Of a stretch of 64,000 nucleotides of DNA, positions 20,726 through 62,087 are shown in pieces; position 1 is the first letter of the stretch, and each line of letters begins with the position of its first letter. The notes below the pieces were generated by a model, which was not told the DNA's origin, searched no databases, and saw only the letters and a program-made list of their open reading frames with translations. The DNA lies in the NCBI GenBank assembly GCA_046349615.1, contig JAXMBZ010000005.1:49785-113784 (forward strand), in the 5' to 3' direction. Origin of the DNA: Planctomycetota bacterium (GTDB lineage Bacteria > Planctomycetota > UBA1135 > GCA-002686595). The translations under genes and the position numbers were made by a program.

Positions 20726-20753
20726 TTGACTCGCCCCCCTCCATGGATAGAAT
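20726..20753 (+). promoter_or_regulatory. Sigma70-like promoter candidate (TTGACT, 16-nt spacer, TAGAAT) upstream of rpsB.
   Basis: The sequence is ttgactcgcccccctccatggatagaat. It lies in a 550-bp intergenic region and would give a leader of about 300 nt before rpsB. Confidence 0.35.
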
Positions 20754-23861: not shown

Positions 23862-23901
23862 ACGCGGTGCGGTCCATGGGCTCGCACGCACGACGCAGGA
23901 C

Positions 23902-23921
23902 GGGCCAGCGCGCGCTGGCCC
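23902..23921 (+). terminator. GC-rich hairpin downstream of the tsf paralog (gggccagcgcgcgctggccc) followed by a T-containing tract.
   Basis: The stem is 8-9 bp and is followed by gtctgcattt. Confidence 0.4.
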
Positions 23922-23992
23922 GTCTGCATTTGGGGGGGGCGGCAGAGGAGGGACTCGCGGTGACCCCGACGGGGCTGGAGACTAGCTCCCGC

Positions 23993-26614
23993 ATGCCGCG
24001 CGCACGTGTCCTCGCGATCGGGCTCGCGCTCGTGATGCTCGCGATCGCGATTGCGCTCGGCGTGCGGGCGAGTCGCGGGCACGCGCCCGAGGTCGCGCGA
24101 ACGAACGACGCCGCCGCGCGCGACGGCGCGACCTCCACGCTCGACGCGTCGAGTTCCGCGATGGATGCGCCGCGGAACGAACTCGCCGTCGCGCGCGTCG
24201 AGGCCGATCCGTTCGTGCACGAGCCCGCGTACGGGCCCGAGCTCCTGCTGCTCTTCGTCGACGAGGACGGTCGCGCGCTGCCGCGCACGAGCGTGCGCGT
24301 GCTCGATCCCGGGCGCGAGGCCTGGTGCTTCGAGCCCGATCCCGCCGCGCTCGGCGACGATCCGATCGCGGAGGTCGAGCGGCGCGGCGTCGCACGCGCG
24401 AGCGACGACAGTGGACGTCTGCGCCTCGCGCGCGCCGAGCGCCCCGTCGCGCTCCTCGCGCGTTCGGGCGATCGCGCGGCGCTGCTCGAGCTCGCGCCGG
24501 ACGCCGCGAGCCCGTGCGCGATCGTCCTGCATCCGAACCGCGCGCTCGACGTGCGTGTGCGCGACGAGGACGGCGCGCCGCTCGCCGGTGTGCCGCTCGA
24601 GCTGTGCGATCCCGACGACATCACGCCCCTGTGGCGCGGCGCGACGGACGAGCACGGTCGCGCGCGCGTCGAGCGCGTCGCGATCGCGTGGGACGATCCC
24701 GAGCTCGCGGTGCGCGTCACCGCGGGCACGCTGCGGCCCGCGCTCCTCTCGCGCTTCGTCCCGAGCGACTTCGACACCGGTCCGGTCGAGTTCGTCGTGC
24801 CGCGCGGCGATCCGCTCGAGCTCCGCCTCGTCGACGGGCAAGGAAACGTCGTCCCGCTCGCGGGCGAGCTCCGGGTGACGTGCGGTTACCGTGGTCGCGA
24901 GCGTCCGCGCATGTTCGGCGACCCGGAGTCGTTCTCCGTGCCGGTGCGCGACGGGCGCGCGCGGCTCGCGAGCCTCGTGCCGAAGGACGAGACGTTCTCC
25001 GTCGTCTTCGAGGGCATCGATTGGACGATCGACGCGGCGCGCGTGAACCCGCTCACACGGCGCGTCGATCTGCCTCTCGAACCCGCGGGCCGCGTCGTGC
25101 GTCTCCGCGTGCTCGGACCCGCGCGCGAACCGTGGACGGATCGACAGCTCGAACTCCGCGAGCGCTACGAGCCCGCGGGGCACGGGAGCGGCCACACACG
25201 CTCGCGCGCGCCGCTCCGGACGGACGCGGAGGGGCGCATCGTGCTCCTGCGCTCGACGTGGGAAGGAACGGACGTGGCGCAACTGCTCGTCGACCCCGAC
25301 GCGCATCCGCCGCTGTTCGCGTACGTGCCGACCTCGGACGCGCGCGAGCTCGAGCTCGTGCTCCAGCCCGCGCCGCTCGCGCTCTCCGGCCGAGTCGTCA
25401 CGGAGCGCGGTGCGCCGCTTCCGCGCGCAACCGTCGAGCTCGCCGAGCTCGGTCCCGATTCAGCGGGCACGGCCGAGTGCCTCGGCGTCGCGCGCACCGA
25501 TGCGGACGGGCGCTTCGAAGCGTTCGGGTACGGCCGCACGGGACCGGTCGCCGTCTCCGTCGCGCGCGACGGCCACTCGTTCCCCTTCGCGGACGGCGAG
25601 CGCAGCACGTTCCCGCGTTCCATCGGCGCCTACGGCGACCGCGACGTCACCGTGCGCGTCGTCGTCGGCGCGGAGCTCGATGCGTGGATCCTCGTCGATC
25701 CCGCGTGGCTCGACGGCGGCGTGAAGGTCGCGCTCGTCGATGCGGAGGACGCAGAGCGCGACGGTGAAGAGGACGCGGAGCCGGGCGTCGCGGAGGACGA
25801 GGAGACCGGCATCGAGGCCGAGCTTCGACGCGCGGGCGACCGCCTCGTCGCGTCGTTTCGCGGTCTCGACGCGGGCGAGTACGCGCTGCGCGTCGCGACG
25901 CCGACCGCGCGCGCCCCCGTGTTCGTCTCTGCCATCGTGATCCCCGCCGAAGGGCTCGCGCGCGATCCGCGCCTCGAGCCGCTCGACCTGCGCGGCGCGC
26001 TCGGCGATCCCGCGGCCGTCGTCGTCGCCGAACTGCCGACGCTGCGCTTCCAGGACGACGCCGCGCGCGCGTTGGAGCACGGCGTGTGGTGCTACTCCGT
26101 CGACGGCGAATGGCACTCGCCCGTGCCCTGGCTCGGCGGAGAGGTCACTGTGTTCGAGCCCTTCGAGCGCATCGCGGCGTGGAGCCCGGGCCGCTCGCTC
26201 GTCGTGCGGCCCGCTCCGCGCGTTTCGGAGGTCTGGACGCTGCCGCCCGCGCGCCGCGTCACGGTGCGCGTCGACGTGCCTGCGAGCCTGCGTGCGAGCA
26301 CGATCACGTACTCCGCCGTCGTCGAGCTCGACGGCGACTCGAATGCGGCCCTCGCCGAACTCGTCTGGTCCGAGGTCTCGACCGCGCTCGACGCGCGCGG
26401 CGAGGCGCGGTTCGAGCTGCCGGGGTCCGGGCGATGGAAAGCGACGGTGGAAGCGCGCTGGGAGGGCGACGAAGGCGTGCTCCACGAGCTCGAGACGTTC
26501 GTCTTCGAGCTGAGCGAGGACTTCGCCGCGTCGACGCGCTTCGAGTTCGCGGCGGACGAGGAGCGCTGGCTCGCGGTGCTGCGCGAGGACGACGCGCCCC
26601 TCGGTCCGCGGTGA
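23993..26614 (+). CDS. Large N-terminally membrane-anchored hypothetical protein (873 aa) with repeated carboxypeptidase-regulatory / Ig-like beta-sandwich-type segments.
   Basis: A TM/signal anchor (MPRARVLAIGLALVMLAIAIALGV) is present. Motifs such as DEDGAPLAGVPLEL and TDADGRFEAFGY recur. The start was chosen at the ATG after the terminator hairpin; the upstream in-frame ORF region is a read-through of the tsf-paralog frame. Confidence 0.5.
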   Translation: MPRARVLAIGLALVMLAIAIALGVRASRGHAPEVARTNDAAARDGATSTLDASSSAMDAPRNELAVARVEADPFVHEPAYGPELLLLFVDEDGRALPRTSVRVLDPGREAWCFEPDPAALGDDPIAEVERRGVARASDDSGRLRLARAERPVALLARSGDRAALLELAPDAASPCAIVLHPNRALDVRVRDEDGAPLAGVPLELCDPDDITPLWRGATDEHGRARVERVAIAWDDPELAVRVTAGTLRPALLSRFVPSDFDTGPVEFVVPRGDPLELRLVDGQGNVVPLAGELRVTCGYRGRERPRMFGDPESFSVPVRDGRARLASLVPKDETFSVVFEGIDWTIDAARVNPLTRRVDLPLEPAGRVVRLRVLGPAREPWTDRQLELRERYEPAGHGSGHTRSRAPLRTDAEGRIVLLRSTWEGTDVAQLLVDPDAHPPLFAYVPTSDARELELVLQPAPLALSGRVVTERGAPLPRATVELAELGPDSAGTAECLGVARTDADGRFEAFGYGRTGPVAVSVARDGHSFPFADGERSTFPRSIGAYGDRDVTVRVVVGAELDAWILVDPAWLDGGVKVALVDAEDAERDGEEDAEPGVAEDEETGIEAELRRAGDRLVASFRGLDAGEYALRVATPTARAPVFVSAIVIPAEGLARDPRLEPLDLRGALGDPAAVVVAELPTLRFQDDAARALEHGVWCYSVDGEWHSPVPWLGGEVTVFEPFERIAAWSPGRSLVVRPAPRVSEVWTLPPARRVTVRVDVPASLRASTITYSAVVELDGDSNAALAELVWSEVSTALDARGEARFELPGSGRWKATVEARWEGDEGVLHELETFVFELSEDFAASTRFEFAADEERWLAVLREDDAPLGPR

Positions 26615-37282: not shown

Positions 37283-40172
37283 TCAGAGTCCGTGCGCTTC
37301 GAAGCCGCCGAGCAGCTCTTGCTGGTGCGGGGTCGGCGTCAGCGGGTTCGCGTCGTCGTCGTCGAGCACGAGCCAGCGCCGCTTGATCCCCGGGTGGATC
37401 GCGAACTCCGGGTACGTCGAGCACCAGGCGCGAAAGAGCGCGTTCGCGATCGACGCGCCGGTCGTCGCGCCGTGCACCGCGACGAGCCGTGCGCGGACCT
37501 GCCAGAGCGCGCCCAGGACGACCTCGCCCTTCTTGTGCGGGTCCCCGAGGAACTGGTCCGCGTAGCTCGCGTACTGCCTGCAGGTCTCGCCGGAGCGCGC
37601 GCACGTCTCCGCCGAACAAAAGTAGGGGAAGAGCTCGGGTTGACCGGTCACGTAGGTCGCCCAGACGTCCGCCAGGCCTTCGTTGAACGCGCTCGGGGCC
37701 TCGATGCCGAAGTCGAGGTCGTTCATCCAGTGCCCGAGCTCGTGGACGAGCACCGTCGCGTTCGCCTTGTTCGTGCACGCTCCGTCGAACGCTCCACAGC
37801 ACCCGCAGCCGGCGGGCTGGATCGGGAAGAGGCCGCAGGCGCCGCCGCCGATGCTGAACCAGGTCTCGGGGCTGCCGACGCCGCCCGGCAGCGCGCTCGT
37901 GGGAACGAAGCGCGCGTCGCAGCCGTTGACCGTCTGCGCGAGGTTGACGCGCGTGAGCTTCGCGTACCCATCGGATTCCCACGCTGCGTCCGCCGGGTTG
38001 ACCTCGGCGATCCAGTGCCGGAGGCGCGTCGTCCACCAGTACGCGTTCGCTTGCGCAGTCAGCGTGGGGCCGCCCGAGTACGGCGCGGGACCGCCGAGCA
38101 GGATCCGGTTGCCCGCGTCGTTCGTCACGGTCGAGGCCAGCGCGTAGTCCGGCCCCGCTTCGTTGCGCACCACCGCGTGACGGCCGCGGAAGCGCGCCGT
38201 GATCGTCCGCGGCGCGGAGCCGGGGAAGCGGAACGTCCCCTCGGCGTCGGTCCAGACGACGTTGCCGAACTCGTCCTCCAACTCGAGATCGGCGAGCACG
38301 GAGGGCACTTCGGCGCTCGGATCGCCGCTCGAAGCCGGCGTCGCGCACGAGGTCGGCGGACACGCGCCGCACGTCCCGGTGCTGCACGGCGAGCACGTCG
38401 TCTGCGGGATCGCCGCGTGCGCGAGGTCGTCGGGCAGGATGCCGGGCGTGATCCACGCGCCGACTCGCCCCGTGACGTCGAAGCGCAGCACGCGGTCCAC
38501 GCACGCGACGACCGCGCCGCTCCGGGCGTCGACGCGGACCTCGTACACGTCGGGCTCGGGACCGTCCGCGAGCGACTGGACGACCTGCGTCCAGACGAGC
38601 CGCCGCGCGTCGCCGGGTGCGCCGGGTCGCGCGCGAAGAGCAGGTGCGCGGGGGCGAGCGCCTTCCCGCGCGGCTCCAGTGCCCGAGCTCGTGGACGAGC
38701 ACCGTCGCGTTCGCCTTGTTCGTGCACGTCCCGTCGAACGCACCGCAGCACCCGCACGCCGCGGGCTGGATCGGGAAGATGCCGCAGACGCCGCCGCCGA
38801 TGCTGAACCACGTCTCCGGGCTGCCGACGCCGCCCGGCAGAGCGCTCGTGGGCACGAAGCGCGCGTCGCACCCGTTGACCGTCTGTGCCATGTTGACGCG
38901 CGTGAGCTTCGCGTAGCCGTCGGACTCCCACGCCGCGTCCGCCGGGTTCACCTCGGCGATCCAGTGCCGAAGGCGCGTCGTCCACCAGTACGCGTTGGCC
39001 TGCGCGGTCAGCGTGGGGCCGCCCGAGTACGGCGCGGGGCCGCCGAGGAGCAGCCGGTTGCCCGCGTCGTTCGTCACGATCGTCGTCAGCGCGTAGTCGG
39101 GGCCCGCCTCGTTGCGCACGACCGCGTGCCGGCCGCGGAAGCGCGCCGTGATCGTCCGCGGCGCGGAACCGGGGAAGCGGAAGGTCCCGTCCGCGTCGGT
39201 CCACACGACGTTTCCGAGCTCGTCCTCCAGCTCGAGGTCGGCGAGCACGACGGGCACCTCCGCGCTCGGATCGCCGCTCGACGCCGCCGTCGCGCACGAG
39301 GTCGGCGGACACGCGCCGCAGGTCGCGGTGCTGCACGGCGAGCACGTCGTCTGCGGGATCGCCGCGTGCGCGAGGTCGTCCGGCAGGATGCCGGGCGTGA
39401 TCCACGCGCCGACTCGCCCCGTGACGTCGAAGCGCAGCACGCGGTCCACGCACGCGACGACCGCGCCGCTCCGGGCGTCGACGCGGACCTCGTACACGTC
39501 GGGCTCGGGACCGTCCGCGAGCGACTGGACGACCTGCGTCCAGACGAGCCGCCGCGCGTCCGCCGGGTGCGCCGGGTCGCGCGCGAAGAGCAGGTGCGCG
39601 GGGGCGAGCGCCTTCCCGGCGCGGCCGGTGCGCGCCTCGAACGCGTCCCGCGCCGTGCGCGCGGCGGTCTCGGCGACGACGAGCGGCGTCGCGGGCGGGA
39701 GCTCAGGAGCGCTCGCGGCCGTCGACACGACGTCGAGCAGCGCGCCGTCCGTCGCGAGCAGGACGCCGAGCCCACCTTCGACGGCCACTCCCGCCGCGCT
39801 CTGACGGAAGCGCACGGCCACCTTGTCCGTGCTGCCGACGAGCGCGAGCGGGAGGAACGTGGCCCGCTCGAAGACCAGCGTGTCGGCGTCGATCCCGAGC
39901 CGTTCGCACGCGGCGCGGGCGCACACCGTCGCGCGCAGCCGCGCGTCGTCCTCGCTGCGGAGCGCCGTCTCGGGCCGCGGCGCGAGCTCTGCGAGTCGCG
40001 CCGCGTCGAAGTGCACGCTCCCGTCCTCGTCGCGCTCCAGCTCCGACGCCGGAGCGGTCGGGCGCGGCACCGTCGCGGCTTCCCGCGGGTCGCGCGCGTC
40101 CGAGGACGGCGCGAGTCGGTCGACGGTCGCGCCGGTGAGGAGGACCACGAAGGCGGGCGCGGCGAACGGCAT
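37283..40172 (-). pseudogene. Secreted HExxH zinc metallopeptidase gene (propeptide-like N-terminus plus catalytic region) containing an internal diverged tandem duplication. The reading frame is broken at the repeat junction: a disrupted gene, or indel errors in a repeat.
   Basis: Frame A (40172 down) encodes a signal peptide, a propeptide-like region, then module 1 ending ...NKANATVLVHELGHW, then Arg-rich junk with no stop until 37248. The frame of ORF 37283..38743 encodes module 2 (about 97% identical to module 1), which continues past HELGHW into MNDLDFGIEAPSAFNEG... and the true C-terminus. The two frames differ by 1 nt. Confidence 0.55.
37727..39625 (-). repeat. Tandem duplication of a ~948-951-bp unit (two copies, about 95-97% identical) inside the metallopeptidase gene.
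   Basis: Copy A is about 38675..39625 and copy B about 37727..38674. Each unit ends exactly after the HELGHW codons. Copy B lacks 1 nt twice within its first ~75 nt relative to copy A (cgcgccggg vs cgcgcggg; ggcggacgcg vs ggcgacgcg). These create the frame break. Confidence 0.8.
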
Positions 40173-40227: not shown

Positions 40228-41166
40228 CTACCCCGTCGCGCGCGGATGCGCCTTCTCGTAGACGGCGCGCAGGCGCTCGATCGACACGTGCGTGTAGATC
40301 TGCGTCGTCACGAGGTGCGCGTGGCCGAGCAGCTCCTGCACGGAGCGCAGGTCGCAACCCTTGTCGAGCAGGTGCGTCGCGAACGAATGCCGCAGCGTGT
40401 GCGGCGTGCAACGGCGCGTGATGCCCGCCTTGCGCACGCAGCTCTCGACGATCCGGCCGAGCGAACGCGTCGTCAGCCTTCCGCCGCGCGGGTTCAGGAA
40501 CACCGCGCTCGCTCCGACGCCTTTCGGCTTCGGTCGCGCGGGGTCCTCGAGGTACGCCGCGAGCGCTTCACGCGCGTAGCGTCCGAGCCCGACGAGCCGC
40601 TCCTTGCGGCCTTTCCCGCGCACGCGCGCGACGCCGCGCGCGAGGTCGAGGTCCGCGCGGTCGAGCCCGACCGTCTCCGCGGCGCGCGTGCCCGCGCTGT
40701 AGACGAACTCGAGCAGCGCGCGATCGCGACGTCCGGCGGGCGTCTTCGCGTCGGGTGCGCGCAAGAGCGCGTCGACCTCCTCCGTCGAGAGCGCGCCGGG
40801 CAGCTTGCGCTCGCCGCGCCGTTGACGCAGGCCTGCGGCGGGGTGCGTCTCGATCGCGCCCTTCTGCAGCAAGTGACGGAACCACGAGCGCGCCGCGCTG
40901 AGCTTGCGTTGGATCGACGCGCGCGCGAGCTCGCGCCCGTCGAGGTCGGCGAGGTACGCGCGCAACATCCGCGGCGTGATCTCGGCGGGCTCGGCGACCT
41001 CGCGGCCGGCGAGGAAGAGCGCGAACTGCTCGAGGTCCTTCCGATACGCGCGCAGCGTGTGCGGCGAGGCCCCGCGCGTCGCCGCGAGCTCCTTCAAGAA
41101 CGCGTCGATCGAGCCCGCGATGCGCGGGGGGATCGGCGGCGACTCGACCTCGTCGCGCGCGGTCAC
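40228..41166 (-). CDS. Tyrosine recombinase, XerC/XerD family.
   Basis: The N-terminal SAM-like domain (IDAFLKELAATRGASPHTLRAYRKDL) is followed by the catalytic R..HxxR..Y region (HTLRHSFATHLL, LGHAHLVTTQIYTHV). Its GTG start overlaps the stop of the upstream gene (GTGA). Confidence 0.85.
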   Translation of the reverse strand: MTARDEVESPPIPPRIAGSIDAFLKELAATRGASPHTLRAYRKDLEQFALFLAGREVAEPAEITPRMLRAYLADLDGRELARASIQRKLSAARSWFRHLLQKGAIETHPAAGLRQRRGERKLPGALSTEEVDALLRAPDAKTPAGRRDRALLEFVYSAGTRAAETVGLDRADLDLARGVARVRGKGRKERLVGLGRYAREALAAYLEDPARPKPKGVGASAVFLNPRGGRLTTRSLGRIVESCVRKAGITRRCTPHTLRHSFATHLLDKGCDLRSVQELLGHAHLVTTQIYTHVSIERLRAVYEKAHPRATG

Positions 41167-42674
41167 TTCGCCGACTTCTTCGCGCCCGACGCCCACGTCG
41201 CCGGGCGGCGCGCCGTCGGTTCGTGCAGCGCGAACAGCGTCATCGCCGTGCCGTAGCTCTCGCTGCGCGGGAACACGCGGTCGTTCCAGCCGCCGTCCTC
41301 CTCGCGCACCTTCCAGAGCAGCGCGTAGAGCTTCGCGCGGTAGCTCGCGCGCTCCGCCTCGGGCAGGAACTCGATCGCCTGCGCGGCGTAGCGGTGCCCG
41401 TAGAAGAAGAAGTACGGCGCGATCGCATACGGCCCTTCGTGCGTGCCGGTCTTCTTGCGCCGGTCCTCGAGCGCCTGCCAGTGCTCGAAGAACGCGTCGA
41501 CCGCGCCGCGCATGCGATCGATCGAGCCGCGGCCGGCGAGGTACAGCGTCGTCTCGCACACGGCCATGCGCGCGCACGCGCCCGCGACCGCCTCGATGCC
41601 CTTGCCGCTCTTGCGCGCCGGGTTCGTGCTGTACTGGAAGGAACCCGTGTCGAGGCGCGCGTCCTCGAGCGTATTCAGCGCGCGCTCGACGACGCCCGCG
41701 TCGACGTGTTCGCCCTGGCGCGCGGCTTCGAAGAGGATCTGCAGCGTCGGCGCCGTCATGAAGGGCGAAGGCGGCGAGAGCGGAATCGCGTCGTCGCCGA
41801 GCGCGCGCTCCGCGGGCGCCAGCGCCTCGGGCGGCGCTTCGTGCTCCTCCGGCACCTCCTCCGCGGCCGGCGCGGCGATGCCCTGCCGCGCTTCGTCGCG
41901 CCCGGGCTTCTCGGGTTTCTCCGGCTTCTCGGGGCGAGCCGGCGCGTTCGGCTTCTTCTCCTTCGCGCGCTTCGCTTCGAGCGCCTTGCGCATCACGTCC
42001 GCGTGCGTGCCGTTCGGGCGCGAGTAGTTCCAGCCGCCCGACTCGATCTCCGTCGTCTCGAGCATGTGGACGAGCCTGGTGATCTCCTGGTCGACGCGCT
42101 CCGCGAGCTCCTTCGGCACGAGCTTGCGTTCGCGCAGGAGCAGGAGGAACGAGAGCCCGTACGCGTGGCCCCAGCCGCGCACGTCGTAGCCCTGCTCGAA
42201 GTCCTTCGTCATCAGCGGATGTCCGACGCCCTCGAGCACGAAGTCGAGCGCGCGTCGCACCGCGGCGGCGCTCTCGTCGGAGAGCTTGCCGTCCTGCGCC
42301 TCGATCAACGCGCTCGCCGCGATCGAGGTGCCGCCGACGCGGTACCCGATCGGGATCTCGCCGCCGACGCGGTACACGCCCTCGTACGGCCACTCGCGCG
42401 GCCCCGCCTTCGCATCCGTCTTCGGCGCGCGGCCGCGCTCCACGGCGGGGTCGTACGCCTCCTGCTTCGCGAGCAGGAGCGCGAGGCCGCGCTTCACCGC
42501 GTTCGTGAGCTCAGCCGCGTCGGGGGCGCGCGGCGCCGCGTCCGTCTTCGGCGCCGCGTCGTCCGCCTTCGGCGCGGCGGGGGACGGCGCCTGCAGCGCG
42601 CGGACGCTCGGCGTGAGCGCCGCGGCGGCGAGGAGCGGCAGGGCGAGGTTCGAGAACGCGGATCGGCTCGGCAT
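41163..42674 (-). CDS. Secreted hypothetical protein, possibly an alpha/alpha-toroid (prenyltransferase / squalene-cyclase-like repeat) fold.
   Basis: A signal peptide (MPSRSAFSNLALPLLAAAALTPSVRA) is present. GGW-containing repeats recur (ESGGWNY, EDGGWND). A Pro/Glu/Lys linker (PEKPEKPEKP) follows. The fold assignment is tentative. Confidence 0.5.
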   Translation of the reverse strand: MPSRSAFSNLALPLLAAAALTPSVRALQAPSPAAPKADDAAPKTDAAPRAPDAAELTNAVKRGLALLLAKQEAYDPAVERGRAPKTDAKAGPREWPYEGVYRVGGEIPIGYRVGGTSIAASALIEAQDGKLSDESAAAVRRALDFVLEGVGHPLMTKDFEQGYDVRGWGHAYGLSFLLLLRERKLVPKELAERVDQEITRLVHMLETTEIESGGWNYSRPNGTHADVMRKALEAKRAKEKKPNAPARPEKPEKPEKPGRDEARQGIAAPAAEEVPEEHEAPPEALAPAERALGDDAIPLSPPSPFMTAPTLQILFEAARQGEHVDAGVVERALNTLEDARLDTGSFQYSTNPARKSGKGIEAVAGACARMAVCETTLYLAGRGSIDRMRGAVDAFFEHWQALEDRRKKTGTHEGPYAIAPYFFFYGHRYAAQAIEFLPEAERASYRAKLYALLWKVREEDGGWNDRVFPRSESYGTAMTLFALHEPTARRPATWASGAKKSAK

Positions 42675-43368
42675 CGGGTTTCCTCGGTGCGCGCGGCGCA
42701 TCCCGCCGCGGGCGCGCGACGATCGTGCGCGCCGGCGCGAGGCCGCGCAAGAGCCGTCCGAGCGCCGCGGGCTCGGCCGCGTGCTCGACGTCGCGCTCGA
42801 GGCCCGCCGCCGAGAGGAGCTCGACGAGCGCGCGCTCGGTGAGCCGGCGCCGGTGGAGCGGGTGGTGCAGCGCGTCGCGTCCGTCGGGGACGAAGCGCGC
42901 GAGGAGCTCCGCCGCGGTCTCGCGCTCCGGCCAGAGCCACTCGTGCACGACGATGCGGCCCTTCGGCGCGAGCACGGACGGGAGGCTCGCGAGCAGCGCG
43001 ACCGGGTCCTCGACGTGCGCGAGCAGGTCCGCGATCCACACGAGGTCGAAGTCGCCGAGGCCGAGGTTCCAACCGAGCGTGTCGACGTCGCGCACCTCGG
43101 CGCGCAGCTCGAGCGAGCGCGCGAACGCGACGTGGTCGGCGACGCGGTCGATGCCGAGCGAGCCCGCGGAGAAATGGAGCAGGTGCCGTCCGTGCCCGCA
43201 GCCGACGTCGAGCACGCGCGCGGAGTCGAGGTCGAACGCGCGGGCGAGCGCGTCGAGCTCGCGCGGCGGCCCGCTCTCGAAGTGGCGCTTCCACGCGAGC
43301 CAGCGCTCGGGGGGAGCGCCGGGGGCGAGGACGCGGGCCTGCATCTCCTCGAGGGTCAGCACGAGCAC
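42511..43368 (-). CDS. Class I SAM-dependent methyltransferase.
   Basis: VLDVGCGHGRHL is the SAM-binding motif I and DLVWIADLLAHV is motif II-like. The last ~70 codons are Pro/Arg-rich and overlap the 5' end of the downstream gene out of frame, so the true 3' end is uncertain. Confidence 0.6.
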   Translation of the reverse strand: MLVLTLEEMQARVLAPGAPPERWLAWKRHFESGPPRELDALARAFDLDSARVLDVGCGHGRHLLHFSAGSLGIDRVADHVAFARSLELRAEVRDVDTLGWNLGLGDFDLVWIADLLAHVEDPVALLASLPSVLAPKGRIVVHEWLWPERETAAELLARFVPDGRDALHHPLHRRRLTERALVELLSAAGLERDVEHAAEPAALGRLLRGLAPARTIVARPRRDAPRAPRKPDAEPIRVLEPRPAAPRRRGAHAERPRAAGAVPRRAEGGRRGAEDGRGAARPRRG

Positions 43369-54285: not shown

Positions 54286-54894
54286 TCAACCCCGCTCGAC
54301 CCCCGTCTCCTTCAGCGCCGCCTCGACCTCGTCCTTCGCGATGCGCGAGTTCGCGCGCACGTCGTCGTGGAACGAGTCGATCTCCGTCGCGGCGTTCGCT
54401 TCGTTCAGCGCGTTCGCGACGCAGTCGGCGTGCACTTTGATCACGGCGTTGCGCACCTGCCCGTAGAACTCGACCGACTGGAGCAGGCCGAAGCGGAACG
54501 CGCCCTCCGCGATGGGCTCCTTGCACTGCGCGCACTTCGAACGACCCGTCGACGCGCGCTCGACGAACGGCGCCTCCTGCTTCTCGGCCTTCTTCTGCTG
54601 CGCCTTCGCGGCCTCGGCGCGCAGCTCCTCGATCGGCGGCTTCTCGACGCCCGGTTGCGTGTAGTCGCCGGCGTAGGCCTCCTCGACCTTCGCGAGGTCG
54701 CGCTTCGCGAGGCAGGGGATGTGGTACCAGAGGTAGCCGGTGCCGTACGGGCCCTCGAGCAACACGCCGATGCGCGGCAGGTCCTTCTCGATGGCGCGCT
54801 TGCAGACCTTGCACTTGCTGCGCGAGGAGCGCGCCTTCTCGATGTTGAAGGGCGCCAGTTGTTCCGGCGCGGGGACTTCTTCGTTTTCGCTCAT
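54286..54894 (-). CDS. Protein with two PARP-type zinc fingers (zf-PARP DNA nick/break-binding modules), 202 aa.
   Basis: Finger 1 reads EKARSSRSKCKVCKRAIEKDLPRIGV...WYHIPC. Compare PARP1 F1: [23 protein letters not shown]...WYHFSC. Finger 2 reads STGRSKCAQCKEPIAEGAFRFG...KVHADC. The start was set at MSENEE; the upstream part of the ORF is Arg/Pro junk. Confidence 0.7.
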   Translation of the reverse strand: MSENEEVPAPEQLAPFNIEKARSSRSKCKVCKRAIEKDLPRIGVLLEGPYGTGYLWYHIPCLAKRDLAKVEEAYAGDYTQPGVEKPPIEELRAEAAKAQQKKAEKQEAPFVERASTGRSKCAQCKEPIAEGAFRFGLLQSVEFYGQVRNAVIKVHADCVANALNEANAATEIDSFHDDVRANSRIAKDEVEAALKETGVERG

Positions 54895-54910
54895 GGTGGC
54901 GTGGGGGAGC

Positions 54911-56365
54911 TCACTTCTTCGCGCCGGACTTCGGCGCAGCGGACTTCGCGCGCGACTTCGGCGCGGTGGAGTGCGTGGGGGCGGGTGCGGCGCGCTTCGC
55001 GGAGTGCGTCGCGCGGGTCGCGGGCTTCGGCGCGTGCGCGGGCCTCGCCGGCGCGCTCGCGGATGCGGAGGCGTTCGACGAGGACTTCGCGAGCGCATAG
55101 CGCGTCTCCTTCACGAGCCGCGGCTTCTCGCGCGCGACCTCGGCGAGGAGCTTCTTCACGAGCTCGTCGCGCCGCGCGAAGAGGCGATAGCCCTCGCGCT
55201 CGCGCAGGTAGCCGCGTGCCTCGGGGTGCTTCGCGAACAGCGCGTCCTTCCCCATGCGCTCCGCCCAGCGTTCGAAGCGCGCGCGCTTCTCGAGCAGCGC
55301 CTTCACGAGGAACGGCATGACCATCGAGTAGTCCGCCTGCATGCTCTCGCACGTCGAGCGGTAGTGCTCCTCGTCGACCTTGCCCCACGTGACGGCCTCG
55401 GCGGGCGGGCACGAGCTGAGCGAGCCGTCCGTCACGGGCGCCGTCGTGATCTGCACGTCGTAGAGGTAGCCCGAGATCTCGGGCAGGCCGAAGATCTGCG
55501 AGAGCGCGGGCTCGGGCTGCAGGTTGTAGTTCTTCGGGACGCCGCCGCCGAGGATCAGCGTGCCGAGCGCCTTCGTCGGCGATTCGCGCAGGCCCCAGAG
55601 GTGGTAGGCGCAGCTCTCGAACACTTCCTCGTGCAGGTCGAGCTCGAAGCGGTGCTCGCCCGAGCCGAGCTTCGCGAGCGCCCACAGCTTCACGGAGTTC
55701 AAGAACACGGAGCCGTCGCCGGGCGCGCCGACGAAGATCGGGATCGCCTTGCGCGTGCAGAGCGCGAGCAGTCCTTCCGCGACGCCGTTCGCGCGCTCCT
55801 GCGCGGCGTAGCGCGCGCCGAGGAGATGCCGGAACTCGGTGCCGGTCATGCGGCGTTGGAACTCCGGCGCCTGGAGGCACGCGCTGACGAACTGGTCCTG
55901 CTCGAGGAGCACGTCCTCGGGGAAGCCGATGTCCGTGACGCGGATCGTCTTCTCGTCGCGCAGCGCGCCGTCGTCGCCGAAGATCGGGACCTCGGTGAAC
56001 GGGTTCTCCTTCGCGCGATTCAGCGCGCGGTGGCCGTCGTGGTAGCACACCGCGTCCGTCGTCGAGATGTACGCGAACCAACCGGTGTCGAGCAGAGGGT
56101 TGAGCCACGCGTAGTGCTGGCCCGACACGGTGACCGGCCCCGCGACGGACATCGTCATCGGGAGGCCTTTGCCGACCGCTTCGTCGAGCAACGTCCAGAT
56201 GCGCCGCAGGTACGCGCCGCCGAACGAGGGCAGGCTCTGCTCGAAGAGCTGGTCGAGCCCTTCGACCTCGGTCACGGGGCGGTTCTTGAGCTCGGCGCCG
56301 CCGTTCGCGGAGCTCGCTCCGGGCCCGAAACAGCGCGCGTTCTGATCCTTGCGGGTGGGGGACAT
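54911..56365 (-). CDS. Deoxyhypusine synthase-like (DHS family, NAD-dependent) protein with a C-terminal Lys/Ala-rich histone-H1-like tail (485 aa).
   Basis: TLILGGGVPKNYNLQ...VTDGSLSSCPPAEAVTWGKVDEE...MVMPFLVKALLE aligns with human DHS IILGGGVVKHH...[21 protein letters not shown]...LVFPLLVAE. The C-terminal ~70 aa is AKSSSNASASASAPARPAHAPKPATRATHSAKRAAPAPTHSTAPKSRAKSAAPKSGAKK. Confidence 0.75.
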   Translation of the reverse strand: MSPTRKDQNARCFGPGASSANGGAELKNRPVTEVEGLDQLFEQSLPSFGGAYLRRIWTLLDEAVGKGLPMTMSVAGPVTVSGQHYAWLNPLLDTGWFAYISTTDAVCYHDGHRALNRAKENPFTEVPIFGDDGALRDEKTIRVTDIGFPEDVLLEQDQFVSACLQAPEFQRRMTGTEFRHLLGARYAAQERANGVAEGLLALCTRKAIPIFVGAPGDGSVFLNSVKLWALAKLGSGEHRFELDLHEEVFESCAYHLWGLRESPTKALGTLILGGGVPKNYNLQPEPALSQIFGLPEISGYLYDVQITTAPVTDGSLSSCPPAEAVTWGKVDEEHYRSTCESMQADYSMVMPFLVKALLEKRARFERWAERMGKDALFAKHPEARGYLREREGYRLFARRDELVKKLLAEVAREKPRLVKETRYALAKSSSNASASASAPARPAHAPKPATRATHSAKRAAPAPTHSTAPKSRAKSAAPKSGAKK

Positions 56366-56629
56366 GGGCGGAGAGTGTACGCGCGCGGAGTGGCGGGGAC
56401 GAGGGGCTGAGCTCGAGGTCCGAGCGCGAGTGGAGCGCCGTCGTCGAGCGCGGATGTTGGGCAGCATCGACCGGCCGGGCGAGCGCGCCAGGACGCGCGG
56501 TTCGAGCGCGAGCGTGCCGGTGCCTTCGATGACCGCGGCGACGCGACGAGCGGCGCGCTCCGCGCCGTTGCGCTCCCCCGCGCGATCGAGGATGCTCTGC
56601 GCGCTCCACACACCAGGAACCCGCCGACC

Positions 56630-57169
56630 ATGACCCAGTTCAACGACAGCGCGAAGGCTCGCTACGGCAAGCAGGACTACAGCCCGAAGAAGAAGATCGA
56701 GGGCGTCGAGATCGTCGAGCTCAAGCGCTTCAACGACGACGGCGGCGCGATGACGGAGCTCGGGCGGCTCGACGGCGGCGTGCACAAGCAGCTCCCGGGC
56801 TTCACGGTGAAGCAGGTGAACTACTCGGTGCTCGAGCCGCTCGCGATCAAGGCGTTCCACCTGCACACGCGGCAGACGGACGTGTGGTACGTGCCGCCGT
56901 CGGACAAGCTCCTGCTCGTGCTCGCCGACGTGCGCAAGGGCTCGCCCACGGAAGGCGTCGTGATGCGCTTCGTGCTCGGCGATGGGAATTCGCGCCTCGT
57001 GCGCATCCCGCCGGGCGTCGCGCACGGGTGTCGCAACCTGCGGCCGGCGGCGCCGAGTGCGATCATCTACTTCGTCGACGTCCAGTTCTCGACGGACGAG
57101 CACTGCGACGAGGGCCGCCTGCCGTGGGACCACTTCGGCACGGCGTTGTGGGAAGTCGAGCGCGGGTGA
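56630..57169 (+). CDS. dTDP-4-dehydrorhamnose 3,5-epimerase-like cupin (RmlC family).
   Basis: The product is 179 aa. GVEIVELKRFNDDGG, HLHTRQTDVWYV and RIPPGVAHG fit the RmlC cupin. No rmlABD genes are nearby. Confidence 0.65.
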   Translation: MTQFNDSAKARYGKQDYSPKKKIEGVEIVELKRFNDDGGAMTELGRLDGGVHKQLPGFTVKQVNYSVLEPLAIKAFHLHTRQTDVWYVPPSDKLLLVLADVRKGSPTEGVVMRFVLGDGNSRLVRIPPGVAHGCRNLRPAAPSAIIYFVDVQFSTDEHCDEGRLPWDHFGTALWEVERG

Positions 57170-57254
57170 GCGCGCCGTTTGCAAGTTTGCAGTCCGACTG
57201 CAAATCTGCAAGCCCCGCGGTTTCTCGAAGAAACCAGGGGAGCTTTCGTCCCCT

Positions 57255-58358
57255 CTACCAGATCACCCGCCACCCGCTCGTGACGTTGAACGTCTCCGGC
57301 GGGCAGAACGCGGCGGCCGCGTTGCGGTAGAAGACCTGGTAGTACCGCACGTCCCCGCTCCCCGGCGCGACGCCGCCGCGCTGCGACAGCGTCACCGTGT
57401 CGCCGACGTCGGGAAACTGGCTCGCTCCGCCGACGTTCGGCTTCGCGTTCAGGCGCACGAGCGTCCCGCCCGCGCAGCGCACGCCGTCCCCGAAGACGAG
57501 GTCGTCGAGCGCGTCGCCCTGCAGGTACACGCACGCGCTCGTCGCCGGCATGCCCGAGGCCGCGAGCACGACCGTGTCGAGCGCCGGGCTCCCGCTCGCC
57601 GTCAGCGCGCCGCCCGCCGGGTTCGCGCTGTTCGCGCACCCGTTCCCGCTCGCGCCGAAGTTCGCGCACGGACAATCCGTCGAGACGTTCGGGTCGAGGT
57701 GGTCGCCCGTGCAGAACGCGCTCCCGCTCGAATCGAGCCGCACGATCTGCACGCCGTTCAGCGAACCGAAGTTGAAGCCCTGCGGCGGCGGCGCGGTGCG
57801 CTGCACCGTGATCACGAGGTCCTGCGGGACGAGCAACGTCGCGTGGTGGAGCGCGTGCGTGACGCCCTGCACGTAGCTCCCCGGGAACGCGCCGCCGACG
57901 ATCTGCACGCCCTCGACCGAACCCACGACGTCGATCGCCGTGCGGTAGTTGGGATCGTCGGGCGCGATCGCGTAGCTCGTGACCTCGTACTCGCCCGGCA
58001 GGAGGCCGGAGATCGTCACGGTGCGCAGGACGCTCCCCGGATCGAGCACGTCGCCGAGGAGCGCGAGGTCGTCGACGCTCGCGCCGGTCAGGTTCGAACT
58101 GGCCGCGGTCGCGACGCCGCCGGAGATCGTCCACGTCACGCTCGTCGCGACGCCCGTCAAGTCGACGAGCGGTTGGGCGACACCCGCGTTCACCGGGAGC
58201 GCGTTCCACGTGCCCGACTTCGCCGCGGCGGCGCCGAAGCTCGCGCTCGGCACCGGGAAGCTCGGGCTCACGCCGAAGTCGACGTTGAAGCTCTGCGCGC
58301 TCGCGAACGTCGTGAGCGCGGCTCCGAGCAGGAAGCAGGGGACGCTGCGGAGGATCAT
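57255..58358 (-). CDS. Secreted protein, paralog A of a four-member tandem family sharing a Cys-rich C-terminal module (367 aa).
   Basis: A signal peptide (MILRSVPCFLLGAALTTFASAQS) is present. The C-terminal ~160 aa read FCTGDHLDPNVSTDCPCANFGASGNGCANS...SGMPATSACVYLQGDALDDLVFGDGVRCAGG...VRYYQVFYRNAAAAFCPPETFNVTSGWRVIW. Confidence 0.6.
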   Translation of the reverse strand: MILRSVPCFLLGAALTTFASAQSFNVDFGVSPSFPVPSASFGAAAAKSGTWNALPVNAGVAQPLVDLTGVATSVTWTISGGVATAASSNLTGASVDDLALLGDVLDPGSVLRTVTISGLLPGEYEVTSYAIAPDDPNYRTAIDVVGSVEGVQIVGGAFPGSYVQGVTHALHHATLLVPQDLVITVQRTAPPPQGFNFGSLNGVQIVRLDSSGSAFCTGDHLDPNVSTDCPCANFGASGNGCANSANPAGGALTASGSPALDTVVLAASGMPATSACVYLQGDALDDLVFGDGVRCAGGTLVRLNAKPNVGGASQFPDVGDTVTLSQRGGVAPGSGDVRYYQVFYRNAAAAFCPPETFNVTSGWRVIW

Positions 58359-58441
58359 GAAGCCTCGCAGGAGCGGAGGGGGGACGAACCAGGTCGCGCT
58401 GGGAAGCCTAGCACGAATCCGAGGACCGGGCGGAAGCGGCC

Positions 58442-59542
58442 TCACCAGACCACCCGGACGCCGTTCGAGACGTTGACCACCGCGGGCGGACAGAACGCAG
58501 CGGCCGCGTTGCGGTACTGCGTCTGGTAGAGCCGAACCACGCCGCTCCCCGGCACGACGGCGGCGCGCGTGGAGAGCGCGGTGTCGCCGGCTCCGGGGTA
58601 GACACCCGCTCCGTTCACGTTCGTCGTCGAGGCGAGGCGGAGGAGCGCGCCTCCGACGCAGCGGACTCCGTCGCCGAACACGACGTCGACGACGGCGTCG
58701 CCTTGGAGCCAGATGCAGCTCGCGCTCGCGGGCGTGCCCTGGAGCGCGAGCTCGAGCGTGTCGGGCTCGGGCGTTCCGCTCCACGTGAGCCGCGCGCCGA
58801 GAGGCTCCACGGAGTTCGCGCACCCGCGTCCGATCGCGCCGAGGTTTGCGCACGGACACGGCGTGTTCACCGCGGGATCGAGCCCGTCGCCGGCGCAGAA
58901 CGCGGACACGCGTTCGAGGAGCACGAGCTGGAAGCCGCTCACGCACGCATAGTTCGGCACGGGCGCCGCGGAGCGCTCGATCGACACGACGATCGGGCTG
59001 CCGTTCACGACGCGCGCGCGATGGCGCGCGTGCGTGACGCCCTCGACGTAGGCGCCGCTCCACGCGCCGCCGACGCTCGCGACGCCGTCGGGCGAGCCGA
59101 ACACGGCCACGTCGGTGCGGTACGCGGCGTTGTCCGGCGCGAGCGCGTACGTGAACACGAGGTAGTCGCCGTCCTGGAGCCCGTCGAAGCTCCAGAGATC
59201 GGGCGAACTCCCGGGATCGCTCGCGTCGGCGAGCAGCGCGCGCGCATCGGGTGGAGCTCCGCCCAGGTTCGCGGTCGATTGGAACGCGACCCCGCCGGTG
59301 GTCGTCAGGGTCGCCGCGAGCGGAGCGCCGTCGAGCGCGACGAGCACCGTCGAGCCGAGGCTCGGAGGCGCGGCGTTCCAGCGGCCGGCTTGATCCGCCG
59401 CGCCCGCGTGGGCGTCGGTCGGCGTCGGGTAGGTGAGGTTGAGGCCGACGTCGACGTTCACGCTTTGCGCGAGGGACGCGGCCGGGAATGCGAGCACCAG
59501 GGCGAGACGGGGGAGCGCGCTCGCGCACGCCCGGAGCTTCAT
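58442..59542 (-). CDS. Secreted protein, paralog B of the same family (366 aa).
   Basis: A signal peptide (MKLRACASALPRLALVLAFPAASLAQS) is present. The architecture and the C-terminal module match paralog A (...YRNAAAAFCPPAVVNVSNGVRVVW). Confidence 0.6.
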   Translation of the reverse strand: MKLRACASALPRLALVLAFPAASLAQSVNVDVGLNLTYPTPTDAHAGAADQAGRWNAAPPSLGSTVLVALDGAPLAATLTTTGGVAFQSTANLGGAPPDARALLADASDPGSSPDLWSFDGLQDGDYLVFTYALAPDNAAYRTDVAVFGSPDGVASVGGAWSGAYVEGVTHARHRARVVNGSPIVVSIERSAAPVPNYACVSGFQLVLLERVSAFCAGDGLDPAVNTPCPCANLGAIGRGCANSVEPLGARLTWSGTPEPDTLELALQGTPASASCIWLQGDAVVDVVFGDGVRCVGGALLRLASTTNVNGAGVYPGAGDTALSTRAAVVPGSGVVRLYQTQYRNAAAAFCPPAVVNVSNGVRVVW

Positions 59543-59744
59543 GGAGTGCGAGCCTAGCACGGAACCGGCGGTCACGGTCGCGGGCGTCGGCGTCCTTCGC
59601 AGCGACGGGACTCCGGAGCCGCGGCCTCGGGAGCCGCGCTCGCGGGCCCCGCTCCCGAGACGAGCGCGGCGCCCGCCCCACTCGGGAGCGAGCGCCGCTC
59701 GAAGGCTCGCGCGCCGTCGTCACGGCGCGTTCAGGCTCCGCGGA

Positions 59745-61349
59745 TCACCAGGTGATGCGGATGCCGTTCGTGACGTTGAACGTCTCGGGCGGGCAGAACG
59801 CCGCGGCCGCGTTGCGGTAGTACGTCTGGTAGTAGCGCACCGCGCCGGAGCCCGGCGTCACGCCGCCGCGCTGCGAGAGCGTGACGGTCTCGACCGAGTC
59901 GGGGAACGACGACGCACCGCCGACGTTCGTCTTCGTCCGCAGGCGGAGGAGCGAACCACCCGCGCAGCGCACGCCGTCGCCGAAGAGCACGTCGTCGAGC
60001 GCATCGCCCTGGAGATAGATGCAGGAGACCGTCGCCGGCATGCCGGAGCCCTGGAGGATCGCGGTGTCGGGGTTCGACGTGCCCGTGGCGACGAGCTGCG
60101 CGCCCGCGGCGTTCGTCGAGTTCGCGCAACCGCGGCCCACCGAGCCGAAGTTGCCGCAGGGGCACGCGGTCGTCACGTTCGGGTCGACGCCGTCGCCCGC
60201 GCAGAACGGCCCGCCGTTGATGCCGGGCACCAGGCGGTCGATCGAACGCGGCGAGAGGATGTTCGTCAGCGAGACGAGGTCGCTGTAGACCTCCGTCATC
60301 TCACCGGCGCCCACCACGCCGTCCGCGTTCGCGTCGGCGAGGCGGAAGATGCGGTCGGGAGTCTGGTCCTCGACCGCGATGACCTCGCCGTTCGAGCCGA
60401 ACGAGACCTGCCACAGGTTGCTCGCCGCGCCGACCGCGTACCAGATCACGCTTTCGTCCGTCAGCGGATTCGGGACGACCGACGGCGGCGAGACCGTGCC
60501 GCTGCCGTCGAGGTCCTTGAAGCGCCAGATGCGCTCGTTCCCCGTGTCGTTCATGTAGTACCAGCCCTGCGCGTCGCGGCGCAGACACCAGTGGAACGCC
60601 GTCGCGGGGCCCGCGGGCGGGAGGAAGTAGGGCGTGACCTCACCGGGCTGATCGATGACGCCGCTCGCGTCCAGGTCATCGAGTCGGTAGACGCCGCGCG
60701 TGAGCACGCCGGATGCGCCGTTCTCGAGGTAGTAGACCTTGCCGTCGAGCCCGACGATCACGCTCGTCGGGATCGAGTCGCCCGTCGCGCCGCCCGGCGC
60801 GGGCGTGAAGTACTGGAGGGACTCGCCCGCGTCGTCGGCGTCGCCGTCGGCGTTCAAGTCCTCGAGGCGGAGGATCGCGTCGACGCCGCCGCCGGTCGTG
60901 CCCGCGTTCGCGACCCACACGACGTTGCTCGCGGGGTCCGCGTACACGTTCTGCGCGGACGCCATCACGATGCCCTGCGCGTTCGTGGTCGAGTGGTAGA
61001 ACACGTGGACCTCGCCGGCGTCGTTCGCGTCGCCGTCGCCGTTGACGTCCTTGAGCCAAAGGACGACGTCTTCGTTCGAGTCGACCGTGTAGATCGTGCC
61101 GTCGGAGTCGACGGAGATCCCGTTCGTCACCGACATCGTCTGACCGCCGACGTTCTCGTCGTAGTACACGACGACGTCGCCGGGGTCGTTGAAGTCGCCG
61201 TCGTTGTTGACGTCCTCGACCGCCCAGAGACGGTCGTCGGTGCCGGTCGAACTGGCGCCGTTGTCGACGACGACGTAGCGGTCGCCCAGAGCGAGGGCCG
61301 GGCACGAGAGGAGAGCGGTGAGGGCTGAGATCGAGAGGATGCGATGCAT
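59745..61349 (-). CDS. Secreted protein, paralog C (534 aa): N-terminal calcium-binding-like DxDxDG repeat (FG-GAP / beta-propeller-like) region plus the shared Cys-rich C-terminal module.
   Basis: A signal peptide (MHRILSISALTALLSCPALA) is present. Repeats such as DVNNDGDFNDPGD, DVNGDGDANDAGE and DLNADGDADDAGE recur. The C-terminus reads ...FCAGDGVDPNVTTACPCGNFGSVGRGCANS...YRNAAAAFCPPETFNVTNGIRITW. Confidence 0.6.
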   Translation of the reverse strand: MHRILSISALTALLSCPALALGDRYVVVDNGASSTGTDDRLWAVEDVNNDGDFNDPGDVVVYYDENVGGQTMSVTNGISVDSDGTIYTVDSNEDVVLWLKDVNGDGDANDAGEVHVFYHSTTNAQGIVMASAQNVYADPASNVVWVANAGTTGGGVDAILRLEDLNADGDADDAGESLQYFTPAPGGATGDSIPTSVIVGLDGKVYYLENGASGVLTRGVYRLDDLDASGVIDQPGEVTPYFLPPAGPATAFHWCLRRDAQGWYYMNDTGNERIWRFKDLDGSGTVSPPSVVPNPLTDESVIWYAVGAASNLWQVSFGSNGEVIAVEDQTPDRIFRLADANADGVVGAGEMTEVYSDLVSLTNILSPRSIDRLVPGINGGPFCAGDGVDPNVTTACPCGNFGSVGRGCANSTNAAGAQLVATGTSNPDTAILQGSGMPATVSCIYLQGDALDDVLFGDGVRCAGGSLLRLRTKTNVGGASSFPDSVETVTLSQRGGVTPGSGAVRYYQTYYRNAAAAFCPPETFNVTNGIRITW

Positions 61350-61523
61350 GGAGTTCCTTGGGGGCGAGCCGGAGCATCGTACCTCCGACTCGAGGATTCG
61401 CCACCTAGTAAATGAGATTCAGTCTCAATACGAACTCGGGCTCATCTCCCGGAGCGCCCGAGAGCACCCGAGCGATTCCAGCGGCCCGCGTGGCGCCTCG
61501 ACGGGCGGACACGTCCACCCAGG

Positions 61524-62087
61524 TCACGGGACCCAGGTCACGCTGACCGCGTTCGTCAGGTTGAAGCCGTCGGGCGTGCAGTACGACGCCGCGTTCCGGT
61601 ACCAACCCTGGTAGTGCATCGTGCCGCCCGCGGCGGGGATGCCGCCGCGCACGGAGAGGACCGGATCGCCCGGGATCCCGAAGCCGAGCGCGACCTGTCC
61701 GCCCGCCGCCGCGCGGACGCCGAGGCGCCACGTCGCGGGTCCCTCGATGCAGCGCAGGCCGTCGCCGAAGACCGCGCCGCTCCCGCCGTTCACCTGCGCG
61801 TCGCCCTGGAAGAAGATGATCGTCGCGGTGGTGGGGAGTCCGGACGCGGCGAGGAGCACGGTGTCGTTCGAAACCTGCGCGTTGCCGGTGCCGACGAGTC
61901 GTCCGCCCTGGCCGAACGAGTTCATGCACCCCGTGCCCGGGACGGGCGGCGCGTTGCCGCAGGGACACGCGCTCGCCGTTCCCGGACAGAACGGCGTGAA
62001 GGTCGACTGCGCGAACAGCGGGAGCGCTGCGAGAGCGAGCGCGGGAGCCGCGGCGAGAGCGGCAGGGTGGGGCAGCTTGAACGTCAT
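61524..62087 (-). CDS. Secreted protein, paralog D (187 aa): a signal peptide plus only a diverged copy of the shared Cys-rich module.
   Basis: The sequence is MTFKLPHPAALAAAPALALAALPLFAQS, then FCPGTASACPCGN...GCMNS...FFQGDA...FGDGLRC...YRNAASYCTPDGFNLTNAVSVTWVP. Confidence 0.5.
   Translation of the reverse strand: MTFKLPHPAALAAAPALALAALPLFAQSTFTPFCPGTASACPCGNAPPVPGTGCMNSFGQGGRLVGTGNAQVSNDTVLLAASGLPTTATIIFFQGDAQVNGGSGAVFGDGLRCIEGPATWRLGVRAAAGGQVALGFGIPGDPVLSVRGGIPAAGGTMHYQGWYRNAASYCTPDGFNLTNAVSVTWVP

Follow-up and report, generated by a model that had tools for sequence, protein, structure and literature searches.

The window analysed here is a stretch of 64,000 nucleotides from contig JAXMBZ010000005.1 of a Planctomycetota bacterium (GCA_046349615.1). 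It contains an array of four genes, designated A, B, C, and D, that encode putative secreted proteins with different N-terminal regions and a common C-terminal module of about 155 aa (Table 1). An earlier reading of the DNA, made from the sequence alone (the sequence-only reading), had proposed four same-strand genes with signal peptides, and this was confirmed. Public contigs of a Planctomycetota metagenome-assembled genome (MAG) were found by exact look-up to carry identical products of 367, 366, 534, and 187 aa. The locus tags of these copies are U1F29_09125 to U1F29_09140, gene A being U1F29_09125 in the Prokaryotic Genome Annotation Pipeline (PGAP) annotation, and each is listed as a hypothetical protein. 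The exact D protein is present on 44 public contigs, and the A, B, and C proteins on 2, 1, and 2, respectively. Thus, it appears that the organism, or gene D, recurs across many metagenome assemblies.

The GC content is approximately 69-76% throughout the window. B, C, and D have stop-to-stop frames whose GC content at third codon positions (GC3) is 0.90-0.94 (0.90 for B), and the alternative frames have much lower values. The value for A is only 0.77 because its frame extends far upstream of the real start. The N-termini of the four proteins have a basic n-region, a hydrophobic h-region, and an AxA-Q type site, as judged by a heuristic reading of the sequence. The intergenic gaps within the array are 174, 202, and 83 bp.

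Table 1. Features of the module gene array and their positions in the window.
Feature	Position	Strand	Description
Gene A	57255-58358	minus	367 aa; open reading frame (ORF) and translation; same-size public gene call
Gene A, signal-peptide-like region	58296-58358		residues 1-21
Gene A, N-terminal domain	57729-58295		residues 22-210; A/B-type
Gene A, C-terminal module	57258-57728		residues 211-367
Gene A, stop codon	57255-57257		
Gene B	58442-59542	minus	366 aa; ORF and translation; same-size public gene call
Gene B, signal-peptide-like region	59468-59542		residues 1-25
Gene B, N-terminal domain	58913-59467		
Gene B, C-terminal module	58445-58912		residues 211-366
Gene C	59745-61349	minus	534 aa; ORF and translation; same-size public gene call
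Gene C, signal-peptide-like region	61284-61349		residues 1-22
Gene C, N-terminal region	60225-61283		
Gene C, C-terminal module	59748-60224		residues 376-534
Gene D	61524-62087	minus	187 aa; ORF and translation; same-size public gene call
Gene D, signal-peptide-like region	62010-62087		residues 1-26
Gene D, C-terminal module	61527-62003		divergent; directly after the signal-peptide-like region
YRNAAAAFCPP codon block, gene A	57297-57329	minus	33 nt; "conserved 3' nucleotide block" of the sequence-only reading
YRNAAAAFCPP codon block, gene B	58484-58516	minus	33 nt; as above
YRNAAAAFCPP codon block, gene C	59787-59819	minus	33 nt; as above
Terminator-like hairpin and T-rich tail	57236-57254	minus	directly after the gene A stop, at the 3' end of the array; the only such site in 57000-62400

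Proteins A and B are 50% identical overall and have in common an N-terminal domain of about 190 aa, which also precedes the module in other genomes. A full-length AlphaFold2 model of protein A, built with an 8-sequence alignment, had a predicted local distance difference test (pLDDT) score of only 38. The N-terminal region of gene C contains six D-x-[DN]-x-[DS]-G loops, one per repeat, at a spacing of 54-63 aa. The calcium-binding-like repeats that had been noted in C are thereby confirmed. At the DNA level, the region also shows repeats (families D5, D11, and D12). Its sub-threshold matches are to EF-hand (E 0.053) and to TIGR02604, a PVC-type N-terminal domain (E 1e-5, 25 bits versus a cut-off of 122). 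This region may form a calcium-binding beta-propeller. Gene D encodes a signal peptide and the module and nothing else, as had been proposed. Its module is about 40% identical to those of A-C, is without the GDGxDP loop, and terminates in W-V-P. Since D has relatives of similar length (183-193 aa) down to 48% identity, the module-only form appears to be conserved.

The module itself is readily recovered from all four genes. The tblastn E-values among the modules of A-D are 1e-14 to 1e-73, exactly four copies are present in the window, and a four-way alignment has 51 invariant columns, with six cysteines among them. The four proteins and their relatives were scanned against a 2025 copy of Pfam-A and NCBIfam release 20.0. 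A, B, and D had no match at E<=1, and the matches of C were weak and irrelevant. In 69 relatives, no Pfam or NCBIfam family covered the module. All of the matches, the most frequent families being found in 12/69 (Pfam) and 6/69 (NCBIfam) proteins, were in the regions that precede the module, which are referred to here as passengers. A profile search of PDB sequences with the module gave nothing below E 0.24, and no published description of it was found in a literature search. The sequence-only reading had not recognised the module as a domain or a sorting signal, and the databases agree with it.

An AlphaFold2 model was made for the module of gene C with a 56-sequence alignment (pLDDT 94.8, predicted template modelling score 0.90). 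In this model, about 40 N-terminal residues with little regular structure and four cysteines, a Cys-rich cap, are followed by a beta-sandwich of about 10 strands. The sandwich is a generic immunoglobulin (Ig)- or fibronectin type III-like one, with the terminal W at the end of its final strand. It is predicted confidently as a complete monomer with no strand missing. The "cysteine-knotted" domain that had been suggested is not supported by the model. Foldseek searches of the model against the PDB and viral models had no match at E<=1e-3. The best template modelling (TM) score in the PDB was 0.40, and the weak fold matches there include copper proteins. Because the six cysteines are invariant in exported proteins, it is likely that the module contains three disulfides; a metal site in place of disulfides was also considered, in view of the CPC motif and the weak fold matches to copper proteins. 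A beta-signal of the beta-barrel assembly machinery (BAM) type, with a terminal aromatic residue and alternating hydrophobic residues, was set aside, since the module is predicted to be a soluble sandwich and not a barrel.

The module is by no means restricted to this array. A 56-sequence profile was searched against 1.84 billion representatives at 50% identity, and 9,399 clusters were found at E<=1e-3, 6,016 at E<=1e-10, and 2,735 at E<=1e-30. In a set of 5.8 billion proteins, there were 318 matches with the C module and 85 with the D module. The named ones are all "hypothetical", and the organism names are Planctomycetes MAGs. The GTDB representative genomes were searched with the 4-sequence module alignment, which gave at least 499 matches confirmed by tblastn. 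The best 79 loci were examined. Their hosts are labelled Planctomycetota, Planctomycetia, Planctomycetaceae, or planctomycete, except for one locus labelled "uncultured bacterium" (L052). These host MAGs are of about 64-71% GC and come from wastewater, groundwater, and lake sources. Counted beyond the window, as had been suggested, the family amounts to thousands of clusters. Because the module is unmatched in Pfam and NCBIfam and its family is very large, it is neither a known domain nor a family confined to this stretch. The module is a real, very abundant, and unnamed domain.

The position of the module within its proteins is strict. Among the 150 representatives listed, it reaches the protein end or stops at most 2 residues short of it in all 150, and it is a single stretch in 149. 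Of 142 strong modules in the fetched loci, 139 are separated from the stop codon by 0-2 residues, and W is either the last residue or part of a final W-x-P. One of the three exceptions lies beside a masked gap, one has variant last residues, and only that in L036 is truly internal. In L036 (6490-8320), the module occupies residues 251-412 and is followed by about 198 further in-frame residues. In L051 (825-6450), an internal module is found beside masked or unknown bases, and because it abuts them, this is probably two genes joined across the gap. Multiple copies per genome are common. At least 19 were counted in one MAG and at least 17 in each of two others in a partial sample, and 50/80 loci carry 2-6 copies, often in tandem. 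Signal-peptide-like N-termini were identified by the same kind of heuristic in 97/126 relatives that appear to be full length.

Conservation was calculated over 446 unique modules and is numbered here by the gene C module. Cys 8, 21, 23, 33, 87, and 144 are each at least 99% conserved, as are N25, D83, G84, R94, Y132, R137, N150, and W159. A seventh cysteine, present in A-C, occurs in 38% of the modules and alternates with Ala, Val, and Ser. It thus behaves like a buried small residue.

The passengers are mutually unrelated and are of types that are typical of surface or extracellular proteins. Those of the propeller type include Rax2, DUF5122, PD40, FG-GAP, Kelch, and LDL-receptor. Others are Ig, GBD_T9SS_assoc, P_proprotein, CARDB, beta-helix, CHRD, Lectin_C, Laminin_G_3, and TSP3 repeats. 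One passenger is an M36 metallopeptidase with its propeptide. The best NCBIfam models for this protein are the T9SS-dependent, myxosortase-dependent, and rhombosortase-dependent M36 peptidases, and these cover only the peptidase part. Pfam DUF6087 was rejected as a family for the module. It was matched in 11/69 relatives, but by segments of about 19 residues within Rax2/DUF5122 propeller-type passengers. These matches (e.g. P0145, P0171, and P0172) are just above the gathering threshold and look like short low-information matches and not a real domain.

Several relatives also contain domains of the "choice-of-anchor" type. TIGR05002 was matched above its cut-off in 5 proteins (82-162 bits, cut-off 50), choice_anch_Q in 2 (27.8 and 28.2 bits, cut-off 25), and choice_anch_E in 1 (79.9 bits, cut-off 23.8). 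Choice-of-anchor domains belong to surface proteins that have LPXTG, PEP-CTERM, or type IX secretion system (T9SS) anchors, depending on the lineage (10.1101/2023.03.06.531300). In this clade, the module is located where the T9SS, exosortase, myxosortase, or rhombosortase signals are found in other phyla.

It is about as likely as not that the module is a C-terminal domain for sorting or anchoring that is specific to one lineage, namely an uncultured high-GC clade of Planctomycetota. This is suggested by its strict C-terminal position, its single copy per protein, its diverse passengers, and its choice-of-anchor partners. The same comparative evidence favours the "novel export or anchoring tag" that the sequence-only reading had offered as one of its possibilities. 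The module proteins, which have signal peptides in their sequences, would cross the cytoplasmic membrane by Sec. The module would then fold in the periplasm into the predicted Ig-like beta-sandwich, stabilised by its putative disulfides. The folded module could be recognised by a partner common to these proteins, which might be a machinery for outer-membrane translocation or attachment or else a receptor or polymer of the cell surface. This recognition would deliver or hold the diverse passengers (beta-propellers, Ig, lectin-like, and peptidases) at the cell surface. Both the shared partner and the surface localisation of these proteins are inferred.

The closest parallel is the C-terminal domain (CTD) of T9SS cargo, which the module resembles in logic, by analogy and without homology. 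Both are folded beta-sandwiches, predicted in the case of the module, at the extreme C-terminus of Sec-exported proteins and occur once in each. Both are attached to very diverse passengers (propellers, Ig, and peptidases) that are encoded by dozens of scattered genes per genome within one lineage. The passenger types overlap as well, as seen for GBD_T9SS_assoc and for the M36 peptidase. PorZ, which consists of two beta-propellers and a CTD (PMC5445135), has an architecture like that of gene C. However, the module has no sequence match to Por_Secre_tail/PF18962, TIGR04183 (type A), or TIGR04131 (type B). At about 155 aa, it exceeds the mirolase CTD chain to which it aligns (8qb1; 88 residues), and it adds the Cys-rich cap and has the six invariant cysteines. 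The hosts also differ: according to published descriptions, the T9SS does not occur outside Bacteroidetes or the FCB (Fibrobacteres-Chlorobi-Bacteroidetes) group (PMC5445135; PMC12398890), and the module is found in Planctomycetota. T9SS hosts encode a machinery that includes SprA, PorV, and PorU, and PorU cleaves the CTD, with attachment of A-LPS; no genes of this sort are present in the window.

The module was also compared with other systems that sort or display proteins. Tripartite signals such as PEP-CTERM, MYXO-CTERM, GlyGly-CTERM, and LPXTG are about 25-35 aa long and consist of a motif, a transmembrane helix, and a basic tail. Like the module, they are lineage-specific C-terminal tags on many paralogous surface proteins with signal peptides. 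The same passenger families, choice-of-anchor and M36, carry tags of the PEP-CTERM/MYXO-CTERM type in other lineages. The proteins A-D differ in that they end in ...NVTxGxRxxW without a basic tail, the unit is a folded domain, and there is no NCBIfam match. The Kyte-Doolittle mean over 15 residues reaches a maximum of 0.33-1.07 within the 30 C-terminal residues of A-D. The module does not have a PEP-CTERM-type architecture because there is no C-terminal hydrophobic helix, and the earlier statement that it is not PEP-CTERM, MYXO-CTERM, or Por/T9SS stands. The module is also not the beta-domain of an autotransporter (type V), which is a 12-stranded outer-membrane barrel of about 250-300 aa. Dockerin and S-layer homology (SLH) domains are, like the module, small and usually terminal units that attach many secreted proteins to a common surface partner. 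However, neither is matched in Pfam, and the Ig-like sandwich predicted for the module contrasts with the EF-hand pair of dockerin and the helical SLH.

A more specific form of the sorting or anchoring reading is that the module is the recognition domain of an undescribed outer-membrane translocation and attachment system, an independently evolved functional analogue of the T9SS. This is put forward tentatively and is somewhat unlikely. Each genome would encode tens of cargo proteins for such a system, and these would be exported in a folded, disulfide-bonded form and be displayed or released after recognition of the module.

A number of results weigh against a role in sorting or anchoring. 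Neighbour clustering in the 79 loci revealed no recurrent sortase, peptidase, or transporter beside the module genes. The top clusters were antisense artefacts of the module genes, and the only recurring neighbours were Ser/Thr kinases and extracytoplasmic function (ECF) sigma factors. Within the window, no secretion or processing machinery was found, and only housekeeping genes are present. The module is larger than the known folded sorting domains and is without sequence similarity or specific structural similarity to them. No choice-of-anchor domain was matched by NCBIfam in A-D, so that this evidence comes from relatives only. Since the conserved module-only proteins, such as D, have no cargo, a binding or assembly role fits them better than a pure secretion signal. 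In addition, all of the genomes that carry the module are uncultured MAGs.

One alternative is that the module is a ligand-binding domain, lectin-like or like a carbohydrate-binding module (CBM), and not a signal that a transport or attachment machine reads. It would then target diverse secreted enzymes and binding proteins to an external substrate or to the organism's own exopolysaccharide or holdfast. The beta-sandwich fold is common among binding modules. A binding site could be made up of the invariant polar and aromatic residues N25, S36, D83, R94, Y132, Y136, R137, and N150. The conservation of D-like module-only proteins and the lack of associated machinery in the neighbourhoods of the 79 loci also favour it. 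The positions of known binding modules vary, and tandem copies are frequent among them. However, this module is single and at the extreme C-terminus in nearly every protein in which it was found, and its terminal W is conserved. Many of the passengers are already binding domains and are not enzymes that need to be targeted to a substrate. There is no match to a CBM or lectin family in Pfam, and none of the Foldseek matches in the PDB was specific. A ligand-binding function is considered unlikely.

The module could alternatively be a self-assembly or cross-linking unit. A surface fibre or protein layer would then consist mainly of D-like proteins, and the proteins with passengers would join it through the same module, by strand exchange or by disulfides into a cysteine-rich envelope. 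A stand-alone module protein is conserved, and its exact D form is the one that recurs on 44 public contigs. Strand exchange would fit the Ig-like fold, whose terminal strand is conserved and ends in W, and cross-linking would fit the six invariant cysteines, with the seventh in some modules. On the other hand, the exchange of the seventh cysteine with Ala, Val, and Ser is unlike a conserved intermolecular thiol. The AlphaFold2 sandwich is complete and monomeric, and there is no missing strand for a neighbour to supply. This role appears to be improbable.

The 3' ends of the genes had been described as almost identical over the last 60 nt or so in A-C, and gene conversion or a strong constraint on the C-terminal ~20 residues had been suggested. 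The last 60 nt of A-C are in fact 73-78% identical when ungapped and 77-82% identical in a codon alignment. Only the 33-nt block that encodes YRNAAAAFCPP reaches 91-94% nucleotide identity among the three genes, and its mismatches are only at third codon positions. Where the amino acids are identical, 73-82% of the codons in the block are identical too, versus 60-66% in the remaining module, and with 11 codons the two cannot be told apart. No two genes of the array have an exact nucleotide run in common that is longer than 20 nt, and for A and C the longest one lies within FGDGVRCAG and not at the 3' end. Over the whole module, the paralogues are 68-74% identical at the DNA level, with ungapped repeat families reaching 79-80% over shorter stretches, and 40-69% identical at the amino-acid level. 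The conservation of amino acids, together with the extreme codon bias (GC3 of about 0.9), is sufficient to explain the similarity of the 3' ends, and a special constraint on these nucleotides is not supported. Gene conversion of the 3' ends was rejected, given the short exact runs and a codon identity in the block like that in the rest of the module. The duplications within the array are old.

The spurious plus-strand ORFs ending in ...VTLNVSGGQNAAAALR do exist, as had been reported, and are the antisense reading of YRNAAAAFCPPETFNVT. Reading the 33-nt block on the plus strand gives the shared spurious peptide GGQNAAAALRY. Long antisense ORFs extend across the module genes at 56884-57330 (+), 56982-58529 (+), 59488-59820 (+), and many other positions. 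Across loci, these antisense ORFs cluster like a conserved family (155 members). In genomes of high GC content, such ORFs can mislead both gene callers and homology clustering.

The genes next to the array are nadA and a DUF6985 gene on one side and, on the other, those for a dTDP-sugar isomerase-like protein (rmlC-like), deoxyhypusine synthase, and a zf-PARP protein. A syntenic locus was found in another species (L015, JBGATX010000041.1, 1585-12468). It has nadA (88% identity), four module genes of the A/B type, and rmlC, and it is without a C- or D-type member. About 4.4 kb of other sequence separates its third and fourth module genes. One of its copies is apparently split over two frames, with the N-terminal domain in one ORF (4073-4786) and the module in another (4755-5211), which suggests a frameshift or a pseudogene. 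Because L015 shares the site and holds different paralogues, the array appears to be a conserved site with turnover by gene birth and death. That the array is instead a trivial recent local duplication, with 3' ends kept alike by gene conversion, might be imagined from the tandem same-strand layout and the 33-nt block shared by three copies at 91-94% identity, but this is refuted by the divergence of the modules and their short exact runs, by a synonymous-codon identity in the block that is indistinguishable from the module remainder, by the thousands of family members elsewhere, and by the different paralogue set at L015. It is proposed that the four genes, which include two A/B-type paralogues, one protein with calcium-binding loops (a putative propeller), and one module-only protein, encode cargo or display proteins of this kind and that their tandem array, between nadA and the rmlC-like gene, is dynamic. 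The evidence for the terminator-like hairpin after gene A (Table 1) is weak, because the count of such sites is not above the shuffled expectation (1 found versus a mean of 1.6).

Other genes in the window include those for a thioredoxin-TPR protein at 5621-6514 (-), a hybrid histidine kinase/response regulator at 8942-11026 (+), and a GGDEF protein at 19565-20920 (-). The genes rpsB-tsf and xseA and those for aminopeptidase P, an SPFH protein, and a major facilitator superfamily (MFS) transporter are also present, and none of these is related to secretion. Long ORFs with high GC3 were found at 23669-26611 (+; 981 aa), 37286-38947 (-; 554 aa), and 41166-43355 (-; 730 aa). The zf-PARP protein gene (54286-55098, -) lies directly downstream of the homologue of deoxyhypusine synthase (PF01916; about 54911-56400, -), which is an odd pairing for a bacterium.

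The literature searches turned up nothing on the transport of proteins across the outer membrane of Planctomycetota or on how such proteins are displayed. In the present case, one domain without a name is found in thousands of protein clusters and in tens of signal-peptide proteins per genome, and its carriers are uncultured organisms of wastewater, groundwater, and lakes. With a profile of the module, a large set of proteins now called hypothetical could be annotated as a candidate surface proteome. Such a profile would also provide a handle on the partner machinery through phylogenetic profiling and would allow export in this clade to be tested by metaproteomics. Even as a binding or assembly unit, the module would be a new and abundant extracellular domain. 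If it does mark a new secretion or attachment system, its importance would be considerably greater.

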